Shown here in pieces: positions 4,438 through 37,420 of a stretch of DNA of 39,585 bases (the first letter of the stretch is position 1; each line of letters starts with the position of its first letter). The position numbers and the translations under genes are program-made. The notes under the pieces are model-generated. The model made no database searches, had not been told where the DNA came from, and was given only the letters and a program-made list of their open reading frames with translations. Source of the DNA: an uncultured Candidatus Saccharibacteria bacterium (GTDB lineage Bacteria; Patescibacteriota; Saccharimonadia; Saccharimonadales; Saccharimonadaceae); assembly GCA_964556075.1 (NCBI GenBank), contig CAZKUV010000001.1:1-39585 (forward strand), read 5' to 3'.

Positions 4438-5784
4438 CTACAGCTCCTCGATGGTTACTCGTCGCTGCTCAGTCGTATCACGGTCACGAATCGTCACCGT
4501 GCCGTCGCCTTCGATCGTCTCAAAGTCGACAACGATACAATACGGCGTCCCGATTTCGTCCTGGCGACGGTAGCGCTTCCCGATATTACCGTTATCATCC
4601 CACATCACCGCGCCATACTTCTGCTTGACATGTGCGTAGACTTCTCGCGCCTTCTCAACTAGTTCCGGTTTATTCTTCAGAAGCGGCGACACCGCAAAGC
4701 GGACGGGAGCCAAATGTTCTGGGAACTTCATCACGATGCGCTTCTCGCTATTTACCTCGTCCTCGGTATATGCCGTCGATAAGACCGCCATAATTACACG
4801 CTCGACGCCGAAGCTCGGCTCGATCACGTGCGGCACGAACCGCTCGTTCGTTCCTGTGACGATATATTCCATCGACCTGCCGCTGTGCTCCTGTATATTG
4901 TTCAAATCGAAATCGGTTCTATACGCGATGCCCATCAGCTCCTCGCGTCCGATTGGGTAGTCGAATTCGAAGTCGATAGTACGCTTGCTGTAGTGCGCGC
5001 GGTCCTCTTCGGGTACCTCGAACTCGTGAACACTGCTTTCGGGTAGGCCGAGCGCCCTAAACCACTCCCTACAAAGACCAACCCATTTATCAAACTCGGC
5101 CTCCCAATTGTCGGGACGAATAAAGTACTCGATTTCCATCTGCTCGAACTCGCGCGATCGAAAAACGAAATCGCGCGGCGAAATCTCGTTACGGAACGCC
5201 TTGCCCTGCTGCGCTATACCGAATGGAAGATCGGGATAAAAGCTGTCGACGATATTTCGGTAATTCGTAAAGATACCCTGAGCAGTCTCAGGCCGTAGAT
5301 AACTTACCGAGGAGTCGTCAGCAATCGGACCGACATGAGTACGAAACATCATGTTAAACGTCCGAGACGGGCTCAAAGGATTGCCATCAGGACTTGTAAT
5401 TCCCTTCTCGGCTATCACCGCGTCCATCTGTTCCATAGTCATGCCGTCGGGATCAATACCGTTATCCTTTAAGATATGGTCGGTGCGGTACCGACGCTTG
5501 TTAACCGTATCTTCGCAGAGCGGATCAACGAACGTATCGACGTGACCGCTCGCTTGCCAAACCTTTTGGTTCATCAATATCGCCGAGTCGACGCCGTACA
5601 TGTCATCGCGCCCATCAACGAACATCTGCCACCAGAGGTTCATAATATTCCGTTTGAGAGCAACGCCGAGCGGACCGTAGTCCCAGGTGCCGCTCAGCCC
5701 GCCATAGACGTCACTACCCTGGAAAATAAACCCTCGGCGCTTGGCGAGGCTAACTATTTGGTCCATTCTGGTTTCTTCATTCAT
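4438..5784 (-). CDS. glyQS: glycine--tRNA ligase (dimeric GlyQS type)
   Basis: The N-terminus MDQIVSLAKRRGFIFQGSDVYGGLSGTWDYGPLG and class II motifs fit GlyRS. The track ORF starts at a GTG (5817). I prefer the ATG at 5784 (MNEETRMDQ...), which has a GGAG about 10 nt upstream. Confidence 0.92.
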   Translation of the reverse strand: MNEETRMDQIVSLAKRRGFIFQGSDVYGGLSGTWDYGPLGVALKRNIMNLWWQMFVDGRDDMYGVDSAILMNQKVWQASGHVDTFVDPLCEDTVNKRRYRTDHILKDNGIDPDGMTMEQMDAVIAEKGITSPDGNPLSPSRTFNMMFRTHVGPIADDSSVSYLRPETAQGIFTNYRNIVDSFYPDLPFGIAQQGKAFRNEISPRDFVFRSREFEQMEIEYFIRPDNWEAEFDKWVGLCREWFRALGLPESSVHEFEVPEEDRAHYSKRTIDFEFDYPIGREELMGIAYRTDFDLNNIQEHSGRSMEYIVTGTNERFVPHVIEPSFGVERVIMAVLSTAYTEDEVNSEKRIVMKFPEHLAPVRFAVSPLLKNKPELVEKAREVYAHVKQKYGAVMWDDNGNIGKRYRRQDEIGTPYCIVVDFETIEGDGTVTIRDRDTTEQRRVTIEEL

Positions 5785-30828: not shown

Positions 30829-32580
30829 TTAGCGGAAACCGCCGCCACCACCACCGCCGCCTCCGCCAGAGAACCCTCCCCCGACAGACCCTCCCGTAGA
30901 CGAGCTAACCGCACCGGTACGATGTACCGAAGAAGTGAAGCTAGTTATCGCCGAGCTGAACGCTAAAGCGTTAAACGCCTGGTCGCCACTATACCATTCA
31001 GGGGATACTCCCGCTTGTTGATAGTACCTTCCGAGATGTTTCGCCCACGTTCTTTCTTGACGGAATAGTATGGCGTACGGCAGCAATTTTTCATATAGTT
31101 TGATCAGCTGGGCTGGATTAGTCGGATCATTTATGTCTACTTTCTCGGCGCCCTCCGGACTCTGGAGCATGGCGATTCTCTCCTTCTCCGCTACCTTGAT
31201 ATACGTTTCAAGCCCCTTCACCTGTCGCCTGAGACGCAAGCCTTCGTCGGAGAGCACCCAGAGCGTACGACTATAGTAGTACGCGAGCAAACACGGGAGT
31301 ATCATAAACGGACTGAGCGTCAGAATCGACAGGATAAGCAGATACTTCGCCGCTTTTTTAAACCAGTCGCGTTTTTCCTGGTCGATACCTTTGTATCCGT
31401 AGGTGTGTCGCATCAGCTCCTTGAGCTTCTTCTCGTTATCCTGGAACCGAGAAAACACGCTCGAGTCCCCTTCCAGTTTTTTAAGCGGAAGTCGTTCCCC
31501 TACCTTAGGAGTATGTCCGAATAAATCGGTCAGCAATTCTCTCTCTTCATCGAGAAGACCAGCGAGGTCTTTAACAATTTTGATGTCGTATTCAGTGGCA
31601 CGAAAGAGTGGAACTATCGATTTCGAACGAGTCTGCAATATCTGAATGTACCGCTTCACTGCGAGGTCGGTCAGCTCGGCAGCGATCGTCGATTGCAGAT
31701 TGGGCGATACCGCCGCCGCTGCGGCCACACTGACATTACGCGGCGGGATATACTCAGGAACGATTGTTCCCAGTTCGACGTTTCGGTATTTCCAGCGGTT
31801 CGCTAGATATAGGAACAGCGCCAGCAGGATGATAGACAGGATGAGCAGTAACAGATTAATTACCACCCAAATGGTGAATATCCATTCCCATAACGTCTTG
31901 ACGTAGGGCATAAACGTTCCCGACTCAAACCCCACGGCAAGCGAAACGTTCTCATTATAGCCAAGATTCTCGGCGCTCACCAAAAAACCGGTGCTCGTTT
32001 TCGTCACTGCGCATCGCTGAGTCGACCCAAACACCCCTTGATAGCACGCCACATTACCGTTGAGTGCCGGACGCAGGTTTTCATCTAAGATAAGTTCAAC
32101 CGAAAGTTTCTCAATCCTTGATTCCCACTCGGTACCGTTCGTGTCCCAATAGAACTCATCGGCATTGATTCGAGCAACGTGTTGCGTCACGTCGCGCATA
32201 GAGTACTTCAATTCGAAGACCTGCGTGCCACTGATATAGTCGTCGGTCCCCGTCTGAATAACATACTCATCACCTGACGTATATTCAGCGTAGATTGGTT
32301 CAGCAGAGCCGTTTCTCGTCACCGATTCGAACTCGAGACTTAGGGTATGGTTCTGGTACTTCCTAGGGATTCTTCGTTCTATCCCTTTGTTGGTATGTTG
32401 CGGAAACTCCACCGTAATCCGTTCGGTAACCGAAAGAGTCGATCGCCGCTCGTCATCACGACCCAATCTATAGACAATACTATAGTCGCTGATAAACGGC
32501 CGCGTTTGCGCTCCCGCATGCGCTCCGAAACTAGTCGCGCCGATAACGGCGACAACCAGTCCGATGAGAACCCGTTTCAT
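30829..32580 (-). CDS. DUF2207-family membrane protein with C-terminal poly-Gly tail
   Basis: The layout is a signal peptide, a large extracytoplasmic domain, TM helices, a cytoplasmic region, and then the tail SSTGGSVGGGFSGGGGGGGGGGFR typical of DUF2207 proteins (from memory). Confidence 0.82.
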   Translation of the reverse strand: MKRVLIGLVVAVIGATSFGAHAGAQTRPFISDYSIVYRLGRDDERRSTLSVTERITVEFPQHTNKGIERRIPRKYQNHTLSLEFESVTRNGSAEPIYAEYTSGDEYVIQTGTDDYISGTQVFELKYSMRDVTQHVARINADEFYWDTNGTEWESRIEKLSVELILDENLRPALNGNVACYQGVFGSTQRCAVTKTSTGFLVSAENLGYNENVSLAVGFESGTFMPYVKTLWEWIFTIWVVINLLLLILSIILLALFLYLANRWKYRNVELGTIVPEYIPPRNVSVAAAAAVSPNLQSTIAAELTDLAVKRYIQILQTRSKSIVPLFRATEYDIKIVKDLAGLLDEERELLTDLFGHTPKVGERLPLKKLEGDSSVFSRFQDNEKKLKELMRHTYGYKGIDQEKRDWFKKAAKYLLILSILTLSPFMILPCLLAYYYSRTLWVLSDEGLRLRRQVKGLETYIKVAEKERIAMLQSPEGAEKVDINDPTNPAQLIKLYEKLLPYAILFRQERTWAKHLGRYYQQAGVSPEWYSGDQAFNALAFSSAITSFTSSVHRTGAVSSSTGGSVGGGFSGGGGGGGGGGFR

Positions 32581-32647
32581 ACTTCCAAGTGTATCAGACT
32601 ATGAGCTATTATCGGCTCAAAGATACTTCGTTTCATCTCGCAGCGGT

Positions 32648-33001
32648 TTATAGAGCGCTAGAGTTCGCCGCTTCGATTAGATGTTGGTTTGACGAACTGT
32701 CCATGAGAGCTTCGTCGAGTTCATCCCGTGCCGTTATACTATCCCTGTAGTATTGCCTGTTCTTAGGCTTTAACCACCCGCCTAGATATATCCCCTCTTC
32801 GATCAACATGCGTCTATGCTTTTCAATAAAGCACCTAAGAGACTTTCCGAGGTTCCGAGGAGAAACTATTTCGGTTTCGTCAGACAGCGCCGGAACACAC
32901 CAAGTACCACCTCCAGCCTCTTCCACCGTGTCATCGTAACTATACCTACGCGTATTCCCGCCGTTTCGACGAATAGAAGCTAGAATAGAATCGAGTATCA
33001 T
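32648..33001 (-). CDS. hypothetical protein (117 aa), orphan
   Basis: The ORF is intact, with TATAAT (33015-33010) 8 nt upstream of the ATG. I cannot name a family. Confidence 0.55.
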   Translation of the reverse strand: MILDSILASIRRNGGNTRRYSYDDTVEEAGGGTWCVPALSDETEIVSPRNLGKSLRCFIEKHRRMLIEEGIYLGGWLKPKNRQYYRDSITARDELDEALMDSSSNQHLIEAANSSAL

Positions 33002-33037
33002 TAAAACTAATTATATAGAAGTGCACCACTAGTACTT

Positions 33038-33066
33038 TTGACTTCGAGTAGACTTTCGTTTATTAT
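33038..33066 (+). promoter_or_regulatory. near-consensus promoter of the 115-aa orphan gene / ribozyme transcript
   Basis: TTGACT (33038-33043), a 17-nt spacer, then TATTAT (33061-33066). Confidence 0.6.
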
Positions 33067-33131
33067 GCCCTTGCTCATCCAACGAAGGGTGGGCGCACTT
33101 CTCATCAATCCATCCGTCAAGGAGCGCGAAG

Positions 33132-33479
33132 ATGCCTCAAGACACGCCGTCAGTTGCTATCGCCGTCGCCGAGAACTGTATCGGCAACGCCGGATATATC
33201 AGCTTCGACTTCGATACGGAACTGCACGGACACTTCCTGGACGCCCAAATCTATCCGAAAGAAGGATACGTTAAGCGGCCTCTCGACTCGGATTTACTCG
33301 AGCGAATCGTTCGCCGTCTCATCGGCAGACGCTACCCGATACTCTTTATCGATGTCATGCCGATGCGCCTGCGAGTGCACATGTTCACGAGTATCGACGT
33401 CAACGCAATGCTCCACGACATCGCTTTAGCGGCGAATAGTCTGGGATACCAGGTCAACGTCTATGGGAGCGAGCCATAA
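33132..33479 (+). CDS. hypothetical protein (115 aa), orphan
   Basis: An AAGGAG SD lies 7 nt upstream of the ATG, and a strong promoter lies further upstream. I recognise no family. Confidence 0.65.
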   Translation: MPQDTPSVAIAVAENCIGNAGYISFDFDTELHGHFLDAQIYPKEGYVKRPLDSDLLERIVRRLIGRRYPILFIDVMPMRLRVHMFTSIDVNAMLHDIALAANSLGYQVNVYGSEP

Positions 33480-33502
33480 TCAGACACCTCTCCGATAGGC
33501 AA

Positions 33503-33533
33503 GCCGCAGGCACGAAAATACCGTGCCTGCGGC
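33503..33533 (+). other. GC-rich 12-bp stem-loop between the orphan ORF and the ribozyme
   Basis: GCCGCAGGCACG-AAAAUAC-CGUGCCUGCGGC. Neither strand has a U-tract after it. Confidence 0.55.
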
Positions 33534-33560
33534 CAACGTCCCAATGACGGAATGGACTGA

Positions 33561-33617
33561 TGACGCTTCCATAGATGCGTATCTATGCTGATGAGTCCGA
33601 AAGGACGAAAAGCGTCG
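33561..33617 (+). ncRNA. type III hammerhead self-cleaving ribozyme
   Basis: The RNA reads UGACGCUU-C/CAUAGAU-GCGU-AUCUAUG-CUGAUGA-GUCC-GAAA-GGAC-GAA-AAGCGUCG. All invariant core positions (C3-A9, G12-A14, A15.1:U16.1, H17=C33569) and the G10.1:C11.1 pair are present. Helices I (7 bp) and II (4 bp, GAAA loop) are capped and helix III (7 bp plus a G-U) is open. Confidence 0.87.
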
Positions 33618-35117
33618 CTATAAATTAAGGTCTGGATAAATCGCTTTGGTGGTTTCGTCAATTTCGCTTCTGAGCTGTGGGAACGGAACACCCTCGCGAG
33701 CGGTCACTCCTTCGAAAATCCAAAAGACTCGTTCGCTATTCCCCCAACCGCACGCTGGTGGCATGCCGTATTCAAGCATTTCGACATAATCGATATCAAG
33801 CATCATCGCTTCATCGTCGCCAGCGTCGCGCATGTTTTGCTGTTCGACGAACCGCTCCAGTTGATCGATTGGGTCGTTCAGCTCAGAAAAGCCATTCCCG
33901 AGCTCGCTGCCCGCAATGATCGACTGGAAACGCTCTGTCGCGCGCGGATCATCAGGGTTTTCTTTGCTTAGCGGCGAAATGAACTTCGGCGTGTTAACCA
34001 GCCAGACCGGACCGGCAACCCCGGCTCGCACCTTCTTCCATAGCTTGTCGATACCGCGCGGAATGCTGTCGGTCTTCTCGACTTCGAGGTTATGCTCCTT
34101 CAGTTTGGCGGCGACCTCCTCGATTGTCGTGTCATAGACGTCGATGCCATAGTGTTTCTGAATGACTTCGCGGTAATCCCATATCTCCCACTCGCCCGAC
34201 ATATCAATATCGAATTCCCCGAGCTTGAACTGCAAGGTGCCGAAAGTTTCCCGAAGAACATATTTATACATCTCTTCCATGAATCTCATGCCGTCGCGCC
34301 AGTTCCAATAGGCGGCATACCATTCCATAGCAACATGTTCGGGTAGATGCTCGTCGGTATAGTCTTCATTTCTAAACCGAGGACCAATATCATAGACTTT
34401 CTCGAACCCAGCGCCGATAAGACGCTTGAGCGGGAGTTCGTGACTGATACGCAAATAAAAGTCGTGGTCGAGAGTATCCATGTGAGTGACGAACGGATTG
34501 GCGTCAGCTCCACCGGTAGTATGTTCGAGCACCGGAATGTTGATTTCAATAAACCCGTGCTGGTTGAGGAAGTCCCGCGTCGCCTGCCAGAATTTCGAAC
34601 GGCGCACGAACCGCTCTCGAACGTCAAGATTGACGTTCATGTCGACATAACGACGCCTGAAACGCTCTTCCTTGTCGGTGAGTTTTTCTGGGATTGGGCG
34701 CAGCGCCTTGGTGAGAAGTCTCAGAGTCTTTACTCCGACCGAAATCTCCCCGGTCTGCGTCTTCATGACTTCACCAGTCGCCTCAATGAAATCTCCGCTG
34801 TCCAGTAACGGGAGTTCTCTCATGCCGAGGATACCCCTGCTGCCGTCTAGATCCGCCACTTCTCCGGCTCGCAAAAACAACTGCACTTGACCGCTCATAT
34901 CCCTCACGACGATGAACGCCAGCTTGCCGAACTTCCTAATGCCGACAATGCGTCCGGCGACGGTAACCGTCTGCCCTTCGAGCTCGTCGAAGCGTCCGGT
35001 AATATCGGCGGTATGATGGGTTCGGTTACTATCTGCCGGGTATGGGTTCACGCCCAGCCCGCGCAACTCCTCGAGTTTGCGCAGTCGTTCGTCTCGGTAG
35101 TCTTGTAGAGTAGCCAT
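33618..35117 (-). CDS. lysS: lysine--tRNA ligase (class II)
   Basis: An N-terminal OB anticodon-binding domain is followed by a class II core with IGPRFRNEDYTDEHLPEHVAMEWY and GWGNSERV. Confidence 0.95.
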   Translation of the reverse strand: MATLQDYRDERLRKLEELRGLGVNPYPADSNRTHHTADITGRFDELEGQTVTVAGRIVGIRKFGKLAFIVVRDMSGQVQLFLRAGEVADLDGSRGILGMRELPLLDSGDFIEATGEVMKTQTGEISVGVKTLRLLTKALRPIPEKLTDKEERFRRRYVDMNVNLDVRERFVRRSKFWQATRDFLNQHGFIEINIPVLEHTTGGADANPFVTHMDTLDHDFYLRISHELPLKRLIGAGFEKVYDIGPRFRNEDYTDEHLPEHVAMEWYAAYWNWRDGMRFMEEMYKYVLRETFGTLQFKLGEFDIDMSGEWEIWDYREVIQKHYGIDVYDTTIEEVAAKLKEHNLEVEKTDSIPRGIDKLWKKVRAGVAGPVWLVNTPKFISPLSKENPDDPRATERFQSIIAGSELGNGFSELNDPIDQLERFVEQQNMRDAGDDEAMMLDIDYVEMLEYGMPPACGWGNSERVFWIFEGVTAREGVPFPQLRSEIDETTKAIYPDLNL

Positions 35118-35162: not shown

Positions 35163-35528
35163 CTAACAATCCGCCAGCGCCTTGCTACCCATCGCCGATT
35201 GCAGCAACAGCAAATCGCCTGGGGTACCTGGTCCGATATGCTCCGCCGCCTCGGCGCACGCTTCGTCGAACTCCTGTCGCTTCTTCACTACTTCCCACCC
35301 AAGCATTATCAGATATTCTCTATAGAGTTCGATAGTATCGTCGTCCAATTCTCCGTCGCCGCTTTCAATTGCTCGACGTTCCATTTCGGCCAGTTCCTTC
35401 TCAATCTCAAAGATTTCATACTTGTTCTGGACCATTTCATCGAAAGCTAGGTTAGCTTTTTCGGCGCTGAACCTACCCAAAAACGCGTGTTGATAAGGAG
35501 TCAGTTCCGGCTGTCTTCGTATGCTCAT
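35163..35528 (-). CDS. hypothetical acidic helical protein (121 aa)
   Basis: The ORF is intact, with a GAGG SD about 9 nt upstream and a possible own promoter, TTGACG-16-TATGCT. I recognise no family. Confidence 0.6.
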   Translation of the reverse strand: MSIRRQPELTPYQHAFLGRFSAEKANLAFDEMVQNKYEIFEIEKELAEMERRAIESGDGELDDDTIELYREYLIMLGWEVVKKRQEFDEACAEAAEHIGPGTPGDLLLLQSAMGSKALADC

Positions 35529-35614
35529 GGTAACGACCTCGCTTAGTTGCCTTGTTAGTCTAGTAGCATACTATATCTGCCAATCACGTCAAGTCTTCTA
35601 GTTGCTTTTGCGTC

Positions 35615-37420
35615 CTAAAACGACTTGCGGCTACGTTTGGCGATGCCAGCAGATTTCAAGCGTAAATCACGTCGCCCAAGCCCCGTCGGACTGATGAAGC
35701 TGTCATCGAATGAGCGGAAATTCCGAAAGGTCCCGTTACCCTTTCGGTTCGTGACTGCCATCTGGGTATAGGCGCCACCGTCACAAGTAACCAGCATTTC
35801 GCACATCTCGAGATAGCCATCTACCATGTCTTCGGTGGACGATTCGCCAACTAGGCGGGCTACCTCGGAAGCGGCAAACTGACGAAGCTCCTTACAATAC
35901 TCGTCGCGTCCGAACACCGCGACTTCCGTCGCGAGACTCATGCCGTCGCCGGTCAAATTCCGAATAAAGTTTCCCGCCTCTGGATTAAGACCGATGGCTG
36001 CGAAGAACCGTTGCGCGACCAGCTTGTTGTAGCTCTTCTGGCGGTGCTTTTCACCTCGGGCCACGGCGACCGGCTTACCGAGATCGTGCGTCAAAAGCGC
36101 CAACCTCATTGGAGCGAGCAACTCAACCGGCACCCTCTCGGCAAAGTTTTCATCGAAATTCTCAAGGGTCGTTGCCGTATGCTCCTCAAGGGAGTACCCT
36201 TCCCAGTTACCAGCGCTCGCTTCCAGTACTCGATCGAAGCACGGGACCTCTTTAGCGGCATCGATTAAACGAGTCGGGCTGACATACGCGCCCTCGAGGA
36301 GATTAAACAACTTATGCCGCTCGGCTGTCGGACGAGGAAACTTGTCGCCGAGCGCCTTACCAATCGGAAGGAGCGCACGGCCGTCCTCTTGCCTTTGCCT
36401 GTCATACGCTTCAACGGTATTAACCTCACGAAGATTAAACAGTGACACAATCGTAATATCTCGCCTCAGCGTCGCGGACCGTACCCCCGACTCCTGTCCC
36501 ACAATATGGTGTTCTTTAAAAAATCGGGCGATATAATCAATCGATACCGGATACGGCGCAGTATCAGTACCTCCCAGCTCGACGGTAGGCCTATCGTAGC
36601 TTTGTATGGCGTGTCCTGCCTTCCATGGATGATTCCAGACATAGTTTCTGGCGTTAACAACAGACGCAAGCGAGGAAACGTCATCGGGAGCGATCCCGGT
36701 CTCCTGCGAGACCTGGTCGATTATATCGTTGGTTACATAGACCAGACCCTTTTGAGAGAATGTCTTCAGCACAGAATCGATATCCCCTCTTGTAAGGTTG
36801 GTATCGATTGGGAGCGGCGTGCCTTCTGAGAGCGGAAAACGCCGAAACAACGTGCGCATACTCTCGACGTACCGATTCCTCTCCTCTTCCGTCAGCGACC
36901 AGAAAGAAAAGTCCCAGGAGACTATCGACGCGTCGATGTCCCGCGAGATTATCTTGTGCACCTCGGCGTGTGCATACGCGTCCATGAGATACTGACGTCG
37001 CTGCTCCTCGTCCAACTCGTGATACCTTAGGGGTTGGCCGGTCGTTCTCTCGAAATGGCTATGGAACGCGCGGGTCCTCGCAAAGTCTTCGGCGATGGAC
37101 AGATCCGCCGTATACAGCACCGGAACAGCAAAGACATTTCGATTACCGGTAGCGTTGCCGCCGTTTTGAAAATACGGATTAACTTCCCACGAAGATACGC
37201 CATCTTCTGTACGATACCTGCCGTGGTAGGTCTCGATATCAGCGAGTGACTTCAGCACGCCAAGCTCCCGTAGGGTTCCGAGCGCTTCGTATTTTTCCCT
37301 AGACTCAATCGGTCGGGAATGTTCGCTCGCATACCGAACCGCCTCGCTCCCGAACCGTCTGACAGTAGAATCCGGAAGTTTTTCAGACTGAGGAGTGCGT
37401 TCGTGGCGTTCTTTTAGCAT
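35615..37420 (-). CDS. HD-domain protein with a large uncharacterised N-terminal region
   Basis: The HD signature is SLEEHTATTL (H414) ... LALLTHDLGKP (H445-D446). The first 400 aa are unassigned but carry GNRN-x7-LYTAD-x4-AED and GVRSA-x6-ITIVSLFN motifs. Confidence 0.78.
   Translation of the reverse strand: MLKERHERTPQSEKLPDSTVRRFGSEAVRYASEHSRPIESREKYEALGTLRELGVLKSLADIETYHGRYRTEDGVSSWEVNPYFQNGGNATGNRNVFAVPVLYTADLSIAEDFARTRAFHSHFERTTGQPLRYHELDEEQRRQYLMDAYAHAEVHKIISRDIDASIVSWDFSFWSLTEEERNRYVESMRTLFRRFPLSEGTPLPIDTNLTRGDIDSVLKTFSQKGLVYVTNDIIDQVSQETGIAPDDVSSLASVVNARNYVWNHPWKAGHAIQSYDRPTVELGGTDTAPYPVSIDYIARFFKEHHIVGQESGVRSATLRRDITIVSLFNLREVNTVEAYDRQRQEDGRALLPIGKALGDKFPRPTAERHKLFNLLEGAYVSPTRLIDAAKEVPCFDRVLEASAGNWEGYSLEEHTATTLENFDENFAERVPVELLAPMRLALLTHDLGKPVAVARGEKHRQKSYNKLVAQRFFAAIGLNPEAGNFIRNLTGDGMSLATEVAVFGRDEYCKELRQFAASEVARLVGESSTEDMVDGYLEMCEMLVTCDGGAYTQMAVTNRKGNGTFRNFRSFDDSFISPTGLGRRDLRLKSAGIAKRSRKSF

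Follow-up and report, generated by a model that had tools for sequence, protein, structure and literature searches.

The 39,585-nucleotide (nt) contig CAZKUV010000001.1 of an uncultured Candidatus Saccharibacteria bacterium, referred to below as the window, carries on its plus strand, at positions 33561-33617, a type III hammerhead ribozyme. The hammerhead lies in the 3' untranslated region (3'UTR) of a small protein gene, orf115, in a cassette whose 5'UTR and 3'UTR contain complementary boxes. On balance we think that the ribozyme is active and sets the 3' end of the orf115 mRNA right behind a panhandle formed by these boxes. An earlier sequence-only reading of this DNA had described the hammerhead and suggested that it may set the 3' end of the mRNA. 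The second of these suggestions gained comparative support from four related cassettes in which a U-tract takes the place of the hammerhead. The hammerhead consists of the following parts.

33561-33617, plus strand: type III hammerhead (sequence, Rfam scan, fold, descriptor search, covariation).
33561-33568 / 33610-33617, plus strand: helix III, UGACGCUU / AAGCGUCG, 8 base pairs (bp), outermost pair U-G.
33569, plus strand: cleavage nucleotide C17 (C33569), preceded by UU; predicted cut after C33569.
33570-33576 / 33581-33587, plus strand: helix I as first read from the sequence, CAUAGAU / AUCUAUG.
33570-33575 / 33582-33587, plus strand: helix I as revised after family comparison, with loop 1 UGCGUA at 33576-33581.
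33588-33594, plus strand: core CUGAUGA (sequence).
33595-33606, plus strand: helix II GUCC-GAAA-GGAC (33595-33598 / 33603-33606, loop GAAA; sequence).
33607-33609, plus strand: GAA, followed by A15.1 (A33610), which is paired with U33568 (sequence).

The motif is a true type III hammerhead. The positions originally assigned to the hammerhead and its parts agree with the sequence, and the fold, the Rfam scan and the shuffling controls concur with the assignment. All invariant type III positions are present (C3 U4 G5 A6 N7 G8 A9, G12 A13 A14, A15.1-U16.1, and an H17 that is not G), and the cleavage site conforms to the NUH rule because UU precedes C33569. Sequence, fold and descriptor search all place three helices around the core, helices I and II being capped and helix III open. 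For the segment 33555-33622 the minimum free energy (MFE) and centroid folds were both the hammerhead three-way junction (-20 kcal/mol, z -2.85). A descriptor search of the window gave exactly one match, with helices of 7, 4 and 8 bp; 400 dinucleotide-preserving shuffles of the window yielded one loose match and none with helices of the observed length. Three independent metagenome contigs (L003, L005 and L008) contain the identical hammerhead sequence, thus it is not an assembly artefact. Two of the eight short metagenome contigs carrying orf115 (L004 and L007) end at positions corresponding to 33572 and 33568 of the window, not more than 3 nt from the predicted cleavage site; this may be a coincidence. 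A second CUGAUGA, at 33557-33563, was considered as a second ribozyme and rejected: it belongs to the 3' box described below, and neither GAAA nor a helix follows it.

The covariance-model search gave a significant match to Hammerhead_3 (RF00008, clan CL00010) at 33568-33610 (29.2 bits, E 1.5e-4 in a 251-nt scan), although this score is below the curated Rfam gathering cut-off of 48.5 bits, which is an operational threshold and not a biological feature. The local alignment spans model positions 7-48 and leaves helix III outside, and the loops of the window hammerhead are shorter than the consensus of the Rfam seed. A scan of the whole window at the gathering cut-off reported a SAM riboswitch alone and no hammerhead. 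Because its score is under the cut-off, standard annotation would miss the window hammerhead.

The short capped helices had been likened to those of minimal laboratory hammerheads, and laboratory minimal hammerheads were themselves derived from such natural motifs. The comparison did not hold up when natural hammerheads were collected. The core pattern CTGANGAGTCCNNNNGGACGAAA, in which the first base of loop 1 and the last base of loop 2 were left free, was scanned over metagenome and viral contigs; a classifier assigned at least 127 matches to type III and at least 109 to type I, and the 57-nt geometry of the window was abundant in these contigs. Among the matches listed, 95 distinct natural sequences had exactly this geometry, in a pattern that fixed the core and the stem of helix II. 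In this set, which was drawn from the matches listed and pre-selected for at least 5 paired bp in helix I and at least 3 in helix III, all six pairs of helix I and seven of the eight pairs of helix III covaried, and the covariation score was 0.711 compared to 0.173 after shuffling (0 of 500 shuffles reached the observed score). In all 95 sequences the first base of loop 1 was U (U33576 in the window) and the last base of loop 2 was A (A33602). The invariance of these two bases fits the conserved reverse-Hoogsteen U-A contact between the loops of full-length natural type III hammerheads (PMC6155905), which, when both loops are kept, cleave fast at low Mg2+ (PMC6155905). Judged by its sequence, the window ribozyme is a canonical full-length type III form, since it shares its geometry with natural hammerheads and the loop 1 U and loop 2 A are invariant, and it is probably catalytically competent.

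The hammerhead is associated with one protein family. Of 80 related Saccharibacteria loci, none contains a hammerhead at a distance of up to 4 kb from lysS, the gene following the hammerhead in the window, therefore covariation was examined in homologues of orf115. The gene had been called an orphan. A word-index protein search with orf115 retrieved itself alone; exhaustive phmmer found four distant relatives (29-37% identity), and a profile search enlarged the family to 13 proteins, in which no domain was recognised, so the label has to be abandoned. One of these proteins is named as coming from Candidatus Saccharimonadales. The contigs of 11 relatives and the window together made up a set of twelve family loci. 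In eight of them (the window, L089, L095, L099, L103, L345, L347 and L348) a hammerhead is present on the strand of the gene, in its 3'UTR, and the proteins of the hammerhead-bearing loci are only 22-36% identical to orf115. The eight hammerheads score 29-43 bits against RF00008, all under the gathering threshold. Their cores are intact in every case, only N7 being variable (U, C or A). The helices differ between the loci by compensatory and not by disruptive changes; disruption without compensation would have spoken against the sequence-only reading. Helix I has the form CAUAGA/UCUAUG or UAUAAC/GUUAUA, with three pairs changed on both sides, and helix III occurs as ACGCUU/AAGCGU, ACACUU/AAGUGU or CAGCUU/AAGCUG. 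In seven family hammerheads both-side changes were found at 8 pairs with 93% of the cells paired, although part of this count is due to shared ancestry because the sequences are very similar; the covariation score was 0.365 versus 0.170 for shuffled alignments, and none of 500 shuffles reached it. The comparison also suggests a small correction to helix I, which was originally given as 7 bp with a GCGU loop. The positions were right, but L089 has U.U at the seventh pair and L103 a loop 1 of only 5 nt, so that a helix of 6 bp with the 6-nt loop UGCGUA appears to describe the structure better. None of 240 loci with the core pattern, among the matches listed, encodes an orf115 relative, and none of them has the 3' box in place.

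The other elements of the window cassette are listed here.

33038-33066, plus strand: sigma-70-like promoter TTGACT-17-TATTAT (consensus scan, 10 of 12 matches).
33073-33131, plus strand: predicted 5'UTR with a 5'-terminal hairpin, the start being placed 7 nt past the -10 box.
33102-33118, plus strand: 5' box UCAUCAAUCCAUCCGUC (family conservation, pairing in folds, swap test).
33119-33124, plus strand: Shine-Dalgarno sequence AAGGAG, directly after the 5' box and 7 nt before the ATG.
33132-33479, plus strand: orf115, an open reading frame (ORF) for a small alpha/beta protein (ORF list, family searches, AlphaFold2 model).
33503-33533, plus strand: GC-rich hairpin of 12 bp with a 7-nt loop and no U-tract (inverted repeat I2), followed by CAACGUCCC.
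33546-33563, plus strand: 3' box GACGGAAUGGACUGAUGA, complementary to the 5' box and overlapping the outer pairs of helix III by its last 3 nt.

The family members share this order: strong sigma-70-like promoter, 5'UTR box, Shine-Dalgarno sequence, ORF, GC-rich hairpin without a U-tract, and 3' box. Equivalent TTGACW-17-TAnnnT promoters precede the family members tested, and a GC hairpin stands at the equivalent position in every member. The hairpins of L099, L103, L345, L347 and L348 share the loop GAGAUAAYAUCAA; the loop of the window hairpin is different. The hairpin of orf115 had been noted before as lacking a U-tract, and this was borne out: an intrinsic terminator is made of a local GC hairpin and a U-tract, and the hairpin at 33503-33533 does not have this composition, nor was any terminator-like site found on either strand of 32500-34200. 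The family 5' box is UCAAUCCAUCC or a close variant, the family 3' box GGAUGGAUUGA or a variant, and TCAATCCATCC occurs exactly once in the window. In the eight hammerhead cassettes 7-10 nt separate the 3' box from the cleavage site, and in the window the outer 3 bp of helix III (33561-33563) coincide with the end of the 3' box. The rest of the cassette matched no Rfam family.

The two boxes evolve together. In the window the 5' box at 33102-33118 is complementary to the 3' box at 33546-33563, and across the family the box duplexes have about 13-19 paired positions. RNAduplex applied to long UTR segments was uninformative because shuffled sequences scored as well, and the duplex tests were done with short anchored segments. 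The mean duplex energy was -26.4 kcal/mol for cognate boxes and -19.3 kcal/mol for boxes swapped between loci, and none of 20,000 permutations was as good (p = 5e-5). In L346, L349 and L350 the compensatory change UCAAUCC/GGAUUGA to UCGAUCC/GGAUCGA was found, and the pairs flanking the boxes are A-U, G-C or U-A depending on the locus. The leader and the trailer are thus complementary in a manner that co-varies between homologues, as is characteristic of a panhandle. The boxes are paired in the MFE folds of all eight predicted transcripts tested, which also have a hairpin at the 5' end. For the window transcript from 33075 to C33569 (495 nt) they are paired in both the MFE and the centroid fold (z = -5.2). 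The 5'UTR of L099 (about 4925-4960) is peculiar in that the 5' box is stretched to about eight CCAU repeats (UCCAUCCAUCC...), which could be a slippage-prone tract or a register-shifting partner of the 3' box.

In the other four of the twelve family loci (L344, L346, L349 and L350) a U-tract follows directly after the 3' box, for example GGAUGGAUCGA-UUUUUUCUUUU, and neither a hammerhead nor any other Rfam ribozyme is present. Measured from the box, release in the U-tract would be expected at roughly the distance at which the hammerhead cassettes have their cleavage site. The only stem adjacent to the U-tracts of the four loci is the long-range 5'-3' duplex, and we infer that these cassettes would reach an equivalent 3' end behind the same duplex. 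One U-tract protein, P0008, is 52% identical to the hammerhead-bearing P0005, thus the swap was recent and took place within the family; the other three U-tract proteins form a clade of their own. The natural exchange of hammerhead and U-tract indicates a specific job, namely the provision of a defined mRNA 3' end behind the panhandle.

We propose that the cassette is self-contained and that the hammerhead is its 3'-terminal part. Transcription starting from the promoter at 33038-33066 would pass the hairpin lacking a U-tract and the 3' box and would enter the ribozyme, which would fold and cut after C33569. One product would be an mRNA of about 497 nt, ending in a 2',3'-cyclic phosphate 6 nt downstream of the 3' box; the other would be the ribozyme body, released with a 5'-OH. 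Pairing of the 3' box (33546-33563) with the 5' box (33102-33118), which immediately precedes the Shine-Dalgarno sequence, would close the mature mRNA as a panhandle with a short 3' tail. The job of the hammerhead would be to give this panhandle mRNA a defined 3' end. The panhandle itself probably serves either to protect both ends of the mRNA or to control translation beside the Shine-Dalgarno sequence.

It must be noted that several points weigh against this interpretation. The window hammerhead scores below the Rfam threshold given above, and the family hammerheads are very similar to each other, with only two helix I haplotypes. Cleavage, in vivo in particular, as well as the transcription start, the 3' end and the purpose of the panhandle, are inferred. 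The MFE structure of the uncleaved 551-nt transcript does not contain the hammerhead fold, therefore the 5'UTR may compete with helix III. The complementarity of the boxes could in principle come from inverted repeats that some other process keeps alike at the DNA level. A terminator stem enclosing about 400 nt, which the U-tract cassettes would have, would be unusual. Moreover, the benefit of a panhandle-shaped mRNA cannot be stated because orf115 has no assigned function.

Among the alternatives the best surviving one, which we nevertheless consider unlikely, is that the ribozyme serves as a transcript separator or insulator, cutting the orf115 mRNA from downstream RNA that would belong to co-directional genes or, in the window, be antisense to lysS; a role of this kind has been suggested for hammerheads flanking prophage genes. 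In at least four loci a co-directional gene follows 40-160 nt past the ribozyme (a LigT-like gene in L095, a NUDIX gene in L099, and genes in L345 and L348), the window has no terminator between the ribozyme and lysS, and hammerhead processing of long phage transcripts has been proposed (PMC3088659). The downstream gene, however, is different at every locus and is convergent in two of them (the window and L089); the constant partner is the upstream gene with its 3' box, and the U-tract variants point to 3'-end formation. The earlier suggestion that the hammerhead limits antisense transcription into lysS fares no better: the convergent layout is confined to the window and L089, the arrangement in L095, L099, L345 and L348 being co-directional, and as cleavage alone does not halt RNA polymerase, antisense lysS RNA would still be made.

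Slightly less likely still, in our opinion, is a regulated switch, in which the 5'UTR would compete for the 5' strand of helix III or for the 3' box, and cleavage, made conditional by translation or by binding of the orf115 protein, for instance, would adjust expression. The overlap of the 3' box with the outer 3 bp of helix III, the abutment of the 5' box on the Shine-Dalgarno sequence, the replacement of the hammerhead fold by pairing with the 5'UTR in the MFE structure of the uncleaved transcript, and the presence in several loci of 4-5-nt 5'UTR segments able to pair with the 5' strand of helix III are compatible with such a switch. However, the sub-helix between the 5'UTR and the post-cleavage tail was no better in cognate than in swapped combinations (exact permutation p = 0.14), helices I and II are local hairpins, which should fold first, and MFE predictions are unreliable for RNAs of 550 nt.

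An RNA circle or mobile RNA, in which the panhandle would join the ends and the 2',3'-cyclic phosphate would be ligated as in viroid-like agents and retrozymes, is a very improbable explanation. The panhandle would indeed bring the two mRNA ends side by side, a gene of the 2'-5' RNA ligase/LigT family lies directly after the L095 hammerhead, and the cassette is found at differing chromosomal sites, in several loci adjacent to tRNA or conjugation genes. Against this, each cassette in the window and the family loci has one hammerhead and not two, there being no second ribozyme in the module; the 5' end would belong to a primary transcript, and the duplex leaves out an additional 5' hairpin, the relatives without a hammerhead use a U-tract, and the LigT neighbour is present at one locus only. 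The least probable explanation, even less so than a circle, is that the hammerhead is a functionless relic or chance motif: in spite of the low Rfam score and the lack of a hammerhead at the orthologous lysS locus of 80 relatives, nothing comparable arose in 400 shuffles, all core nucleotides are kept in eight loci whose proteins are 22-36% identical, and the changes in the helices are compensatory.

If the ribozyme sets the 3' end behind the panhandle, as we prefer to think, the cassette combines features of several known systems. The type III hammerheads of plant virus satellite RNAs and viroids (RF00008; sTRSV, sLTSV) have a catalytic core identical to that of the window hammerhead, and the two kinds share the helix II GUCC-tetraloop-GGAC, an open helix III, and a helix I of 6-7 bp with a short loop starting with U. 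A 366-nt viral record found among the pattern matches (L294) has the geometry of the window, its helix II and its GAAA loop. In contrast to the satellite and viroid hammerheads, the window hammerhead is a single chromosomal copy in the 3'UTR of a protein gene and is not part of a rolling-circle RNA replicon, and its score against the Rfam model is only 29 bits. In hok-type type I toxin mRNAs the 3' end pairs with the 5' leader near the translation start, and the 3' end matters for stability and translation; these mRNAs encode short hydrophobic toxin peptides, have an antisense RNA partner and contain no ribozyme. The orf115 cassette differs in that it encodes a 115-amino-acid, soluble-looking alpha/beta protein, has a ribozyme, and has no antisense partner that we could see. 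The glmS ribozyme, like the window hammerhead, is a self-cleaving RNA in a bacterial mRNA and alters the fate of the message; it belongs to a different ribozyme class, resides in the 5'UTR and not in the 3'UTR, requires a metabolite, and after its cleavage the message is less stable.

Type I, II and III hammerheads were described from bacterial intergenic regions and prophages, often near hypothetical genes (Perreault et al. 2011, PMC3088659; PMC6155905), and the role of bacterial hammerheads is regarded as an open question (PMC3088659, PMC6155905). Most bacterial hammerheads stand beside changing sets of phage genes, which offer no handle on function. The window hammerhead differs from these known bacterial and phage hammerheads in its link to a single protein family, in its position behind a conserved 3' box pairing with the 5'UTR, and in its alternation with a U-tract. 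The discontinuous type III hammerhead of mammalian Clec2 is likewise in an mRNA 3'UTR, where its cleavage shapes the 3' end (PMC6155905); unlike the window hammerhead, it is eukaryotic, has a very long insert in helix I, is linked to polyadenylation (PMC6155905) and has no 5'-3' panhandle. The literature searched does not mention hammerheads in Saccharibacteria or Patescibacteria. It appears that the window ribozyme belongs to a known class, and that the layout of the cassette and the exchange of ribozyme and U-tract are unreported. Among the viral contigs of our pattern scan, L233, L238, L261, L311, L315 and others have two or more type III hammerheads each, with window-like geometry, frequently with a conserved AAGACAC-like motif in front and a start codon within 20-40 nt behind; they match the multi-hammerhead phage operons described in PMC3088659. 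A search of viral contigs for the combination of box and hammerhead gave 12 matches, all of them chance matches without helix II or GAAA.

A second set of metagenome loci with unrelated ORFs (L119, L138, L157, L164, L210, L212 and L220) has a comparable layout. Most of them carry a 5'UTR box, UUGACAAGCAG, and, immediately ahead of a type III hammerhead, a complementary 3' box, CUGCUUGUCAUAU; variants of the boxes co-vary in L212 and L157, and the complementarity is weak in L164 and L119. L119 comes from Saccharibacteria as judged by a ThrRS similarity of about 80%. This suggests that the arrangement of 5' box, 3' box and hammerhead is a more general habit of Saccharibacteria genomes. It is a tentative idea that Saccharibacteria carry families of stand-alone cassettes, whose mRNAs are closed by a conserved duplex between the 5'UTR and the 3'UTR and receive their 3' end, right behind this duplex, either from a type III hammerhead or from a U-tract. 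If this were true, the terminator stem of the U-tract would have to be the long-range duplex, cleavage by the ribozyme and intrinsic termination would be interchangeable devices of 3'-end formation, and bacterial hammerheads would have a concrete, testable cellular function. The results also mean that canonical hammerheads of candidate-phyla-radiation bacteria fall under the Rfam cut-off and stay unannotated.

The orf115 protein (115 amino acids) was predicted by AlphaFold2 to have a confident, small and soluble-looking alpha/beta fold (predicted local distance difference test score, pLDDT, 89; predicted template modelling score, pTM, 0.83). It had no match in Pfam, NCBIfam, PHROGs, PADLOC or the PDB sequences, and fold searches of the PDB and of viral structures gave none at E <= 0.001, the best match being of the SAV1430/NFU1 N-domain-like type (E 4e-3, template modelling score 0.5-0.6). 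The gene next to the cassette is the following.

32648-33001, minus strand: orf117, divergent neighbour and possible partner gene (homologue beside the orf115 homologue in L089-L094).

Searches of Pfam, NCBIfam and PADLOC gave no match for orf117. A homologue (36-41% identity) adjoins the orf115 homologue in L089-L094 (in L089 at 341-724 on the minus strand) and is absent from the remaining orf115-family loci, thus orf117 may be a partner gene in this sub-branch.

The hammerhead arrived in the window with a lineage-specific insertion. The lysS ORF occupies 33618-35117 on the minus strand, stop codon included, and as the hammerhead ends at 33617 it abuts the lysS stop codon. The neighbours are the housekeeping genes proS, greA and lysS, followed by genes for a DUF2207 membrane protein, PadR and PspC. 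Proteins of 80 species, mostly labelled Candidatus Saccharibacteria or Saccharimonadales (TM7), share 75-89% identity with LysS, and in many of these 80 loci DUF2207 lies close behind lysS. The two genes are separated by 38 nt in L012, by about 268 nt in L009 (the closest relative) and by 1037 nt in the window, and the approximately 1 kb with orf117, orf115 and the hammerhead does not occur in the relatives, from which we conclude that the hammerhead came with the insertion.

32581-33617, strand not assigned: lineage-specific insertion between DUF2207 and lysS, comprising orf117, the orf115 cassette and the hammerhead (gap comparison with 80 loci).

Its right edge is the lysS stop codon; neither a target-site duplication nor flanking direct repeats were found. 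The spacer between lysS and DUF2207 in L009 contains a 50-nt element (5551-5600) which is 92% identical, on the opposite strand, to L089 1867-1916, a segment just 3' of the L089 hammerhead; this element might represent a remnant, or a 3'UTR element common to both.

Elsewhere in the family the cassette lies directly after tRNA-Arg in L344 (1040-1116) and after tRNA-Trp in L346 (594-670), and in L099 and L348 it follows apparent fragments of tRNA 3' ends (...CACCCCAGCCA). Type IV secretion/conjugation genes are located upstream in L099. Such locations suggest that the cassettes reside in integration hot spots or on mobile islands. Immediately behind the hammerhead lies a gene for a 2'-5' RNA ligase/LigT-family protein in L095 (5520-6056) and for a NUDIX hydrolase in L099 (5572-6039), each at a single locus; members of both families are capable of acting on RNA ends.

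The other side of lysS carries a second lineage-specific insertion. In most of the 80 related loci greA directly precedes lysS. In the window orf121 and orf601 (35163-37420, minus strand) stand between the two genes, and they are not present in the related loci; orf601 has a weak Cas3 HD-domain-like match in PADLOC (E 1.6e-4). The SAM riboswitch found in the window scan (RF00162, 1619-1721, minus strand, 69.1 bits, E 2.9e-14) is located upstream of the ORF at 582-1586 on the same strand.

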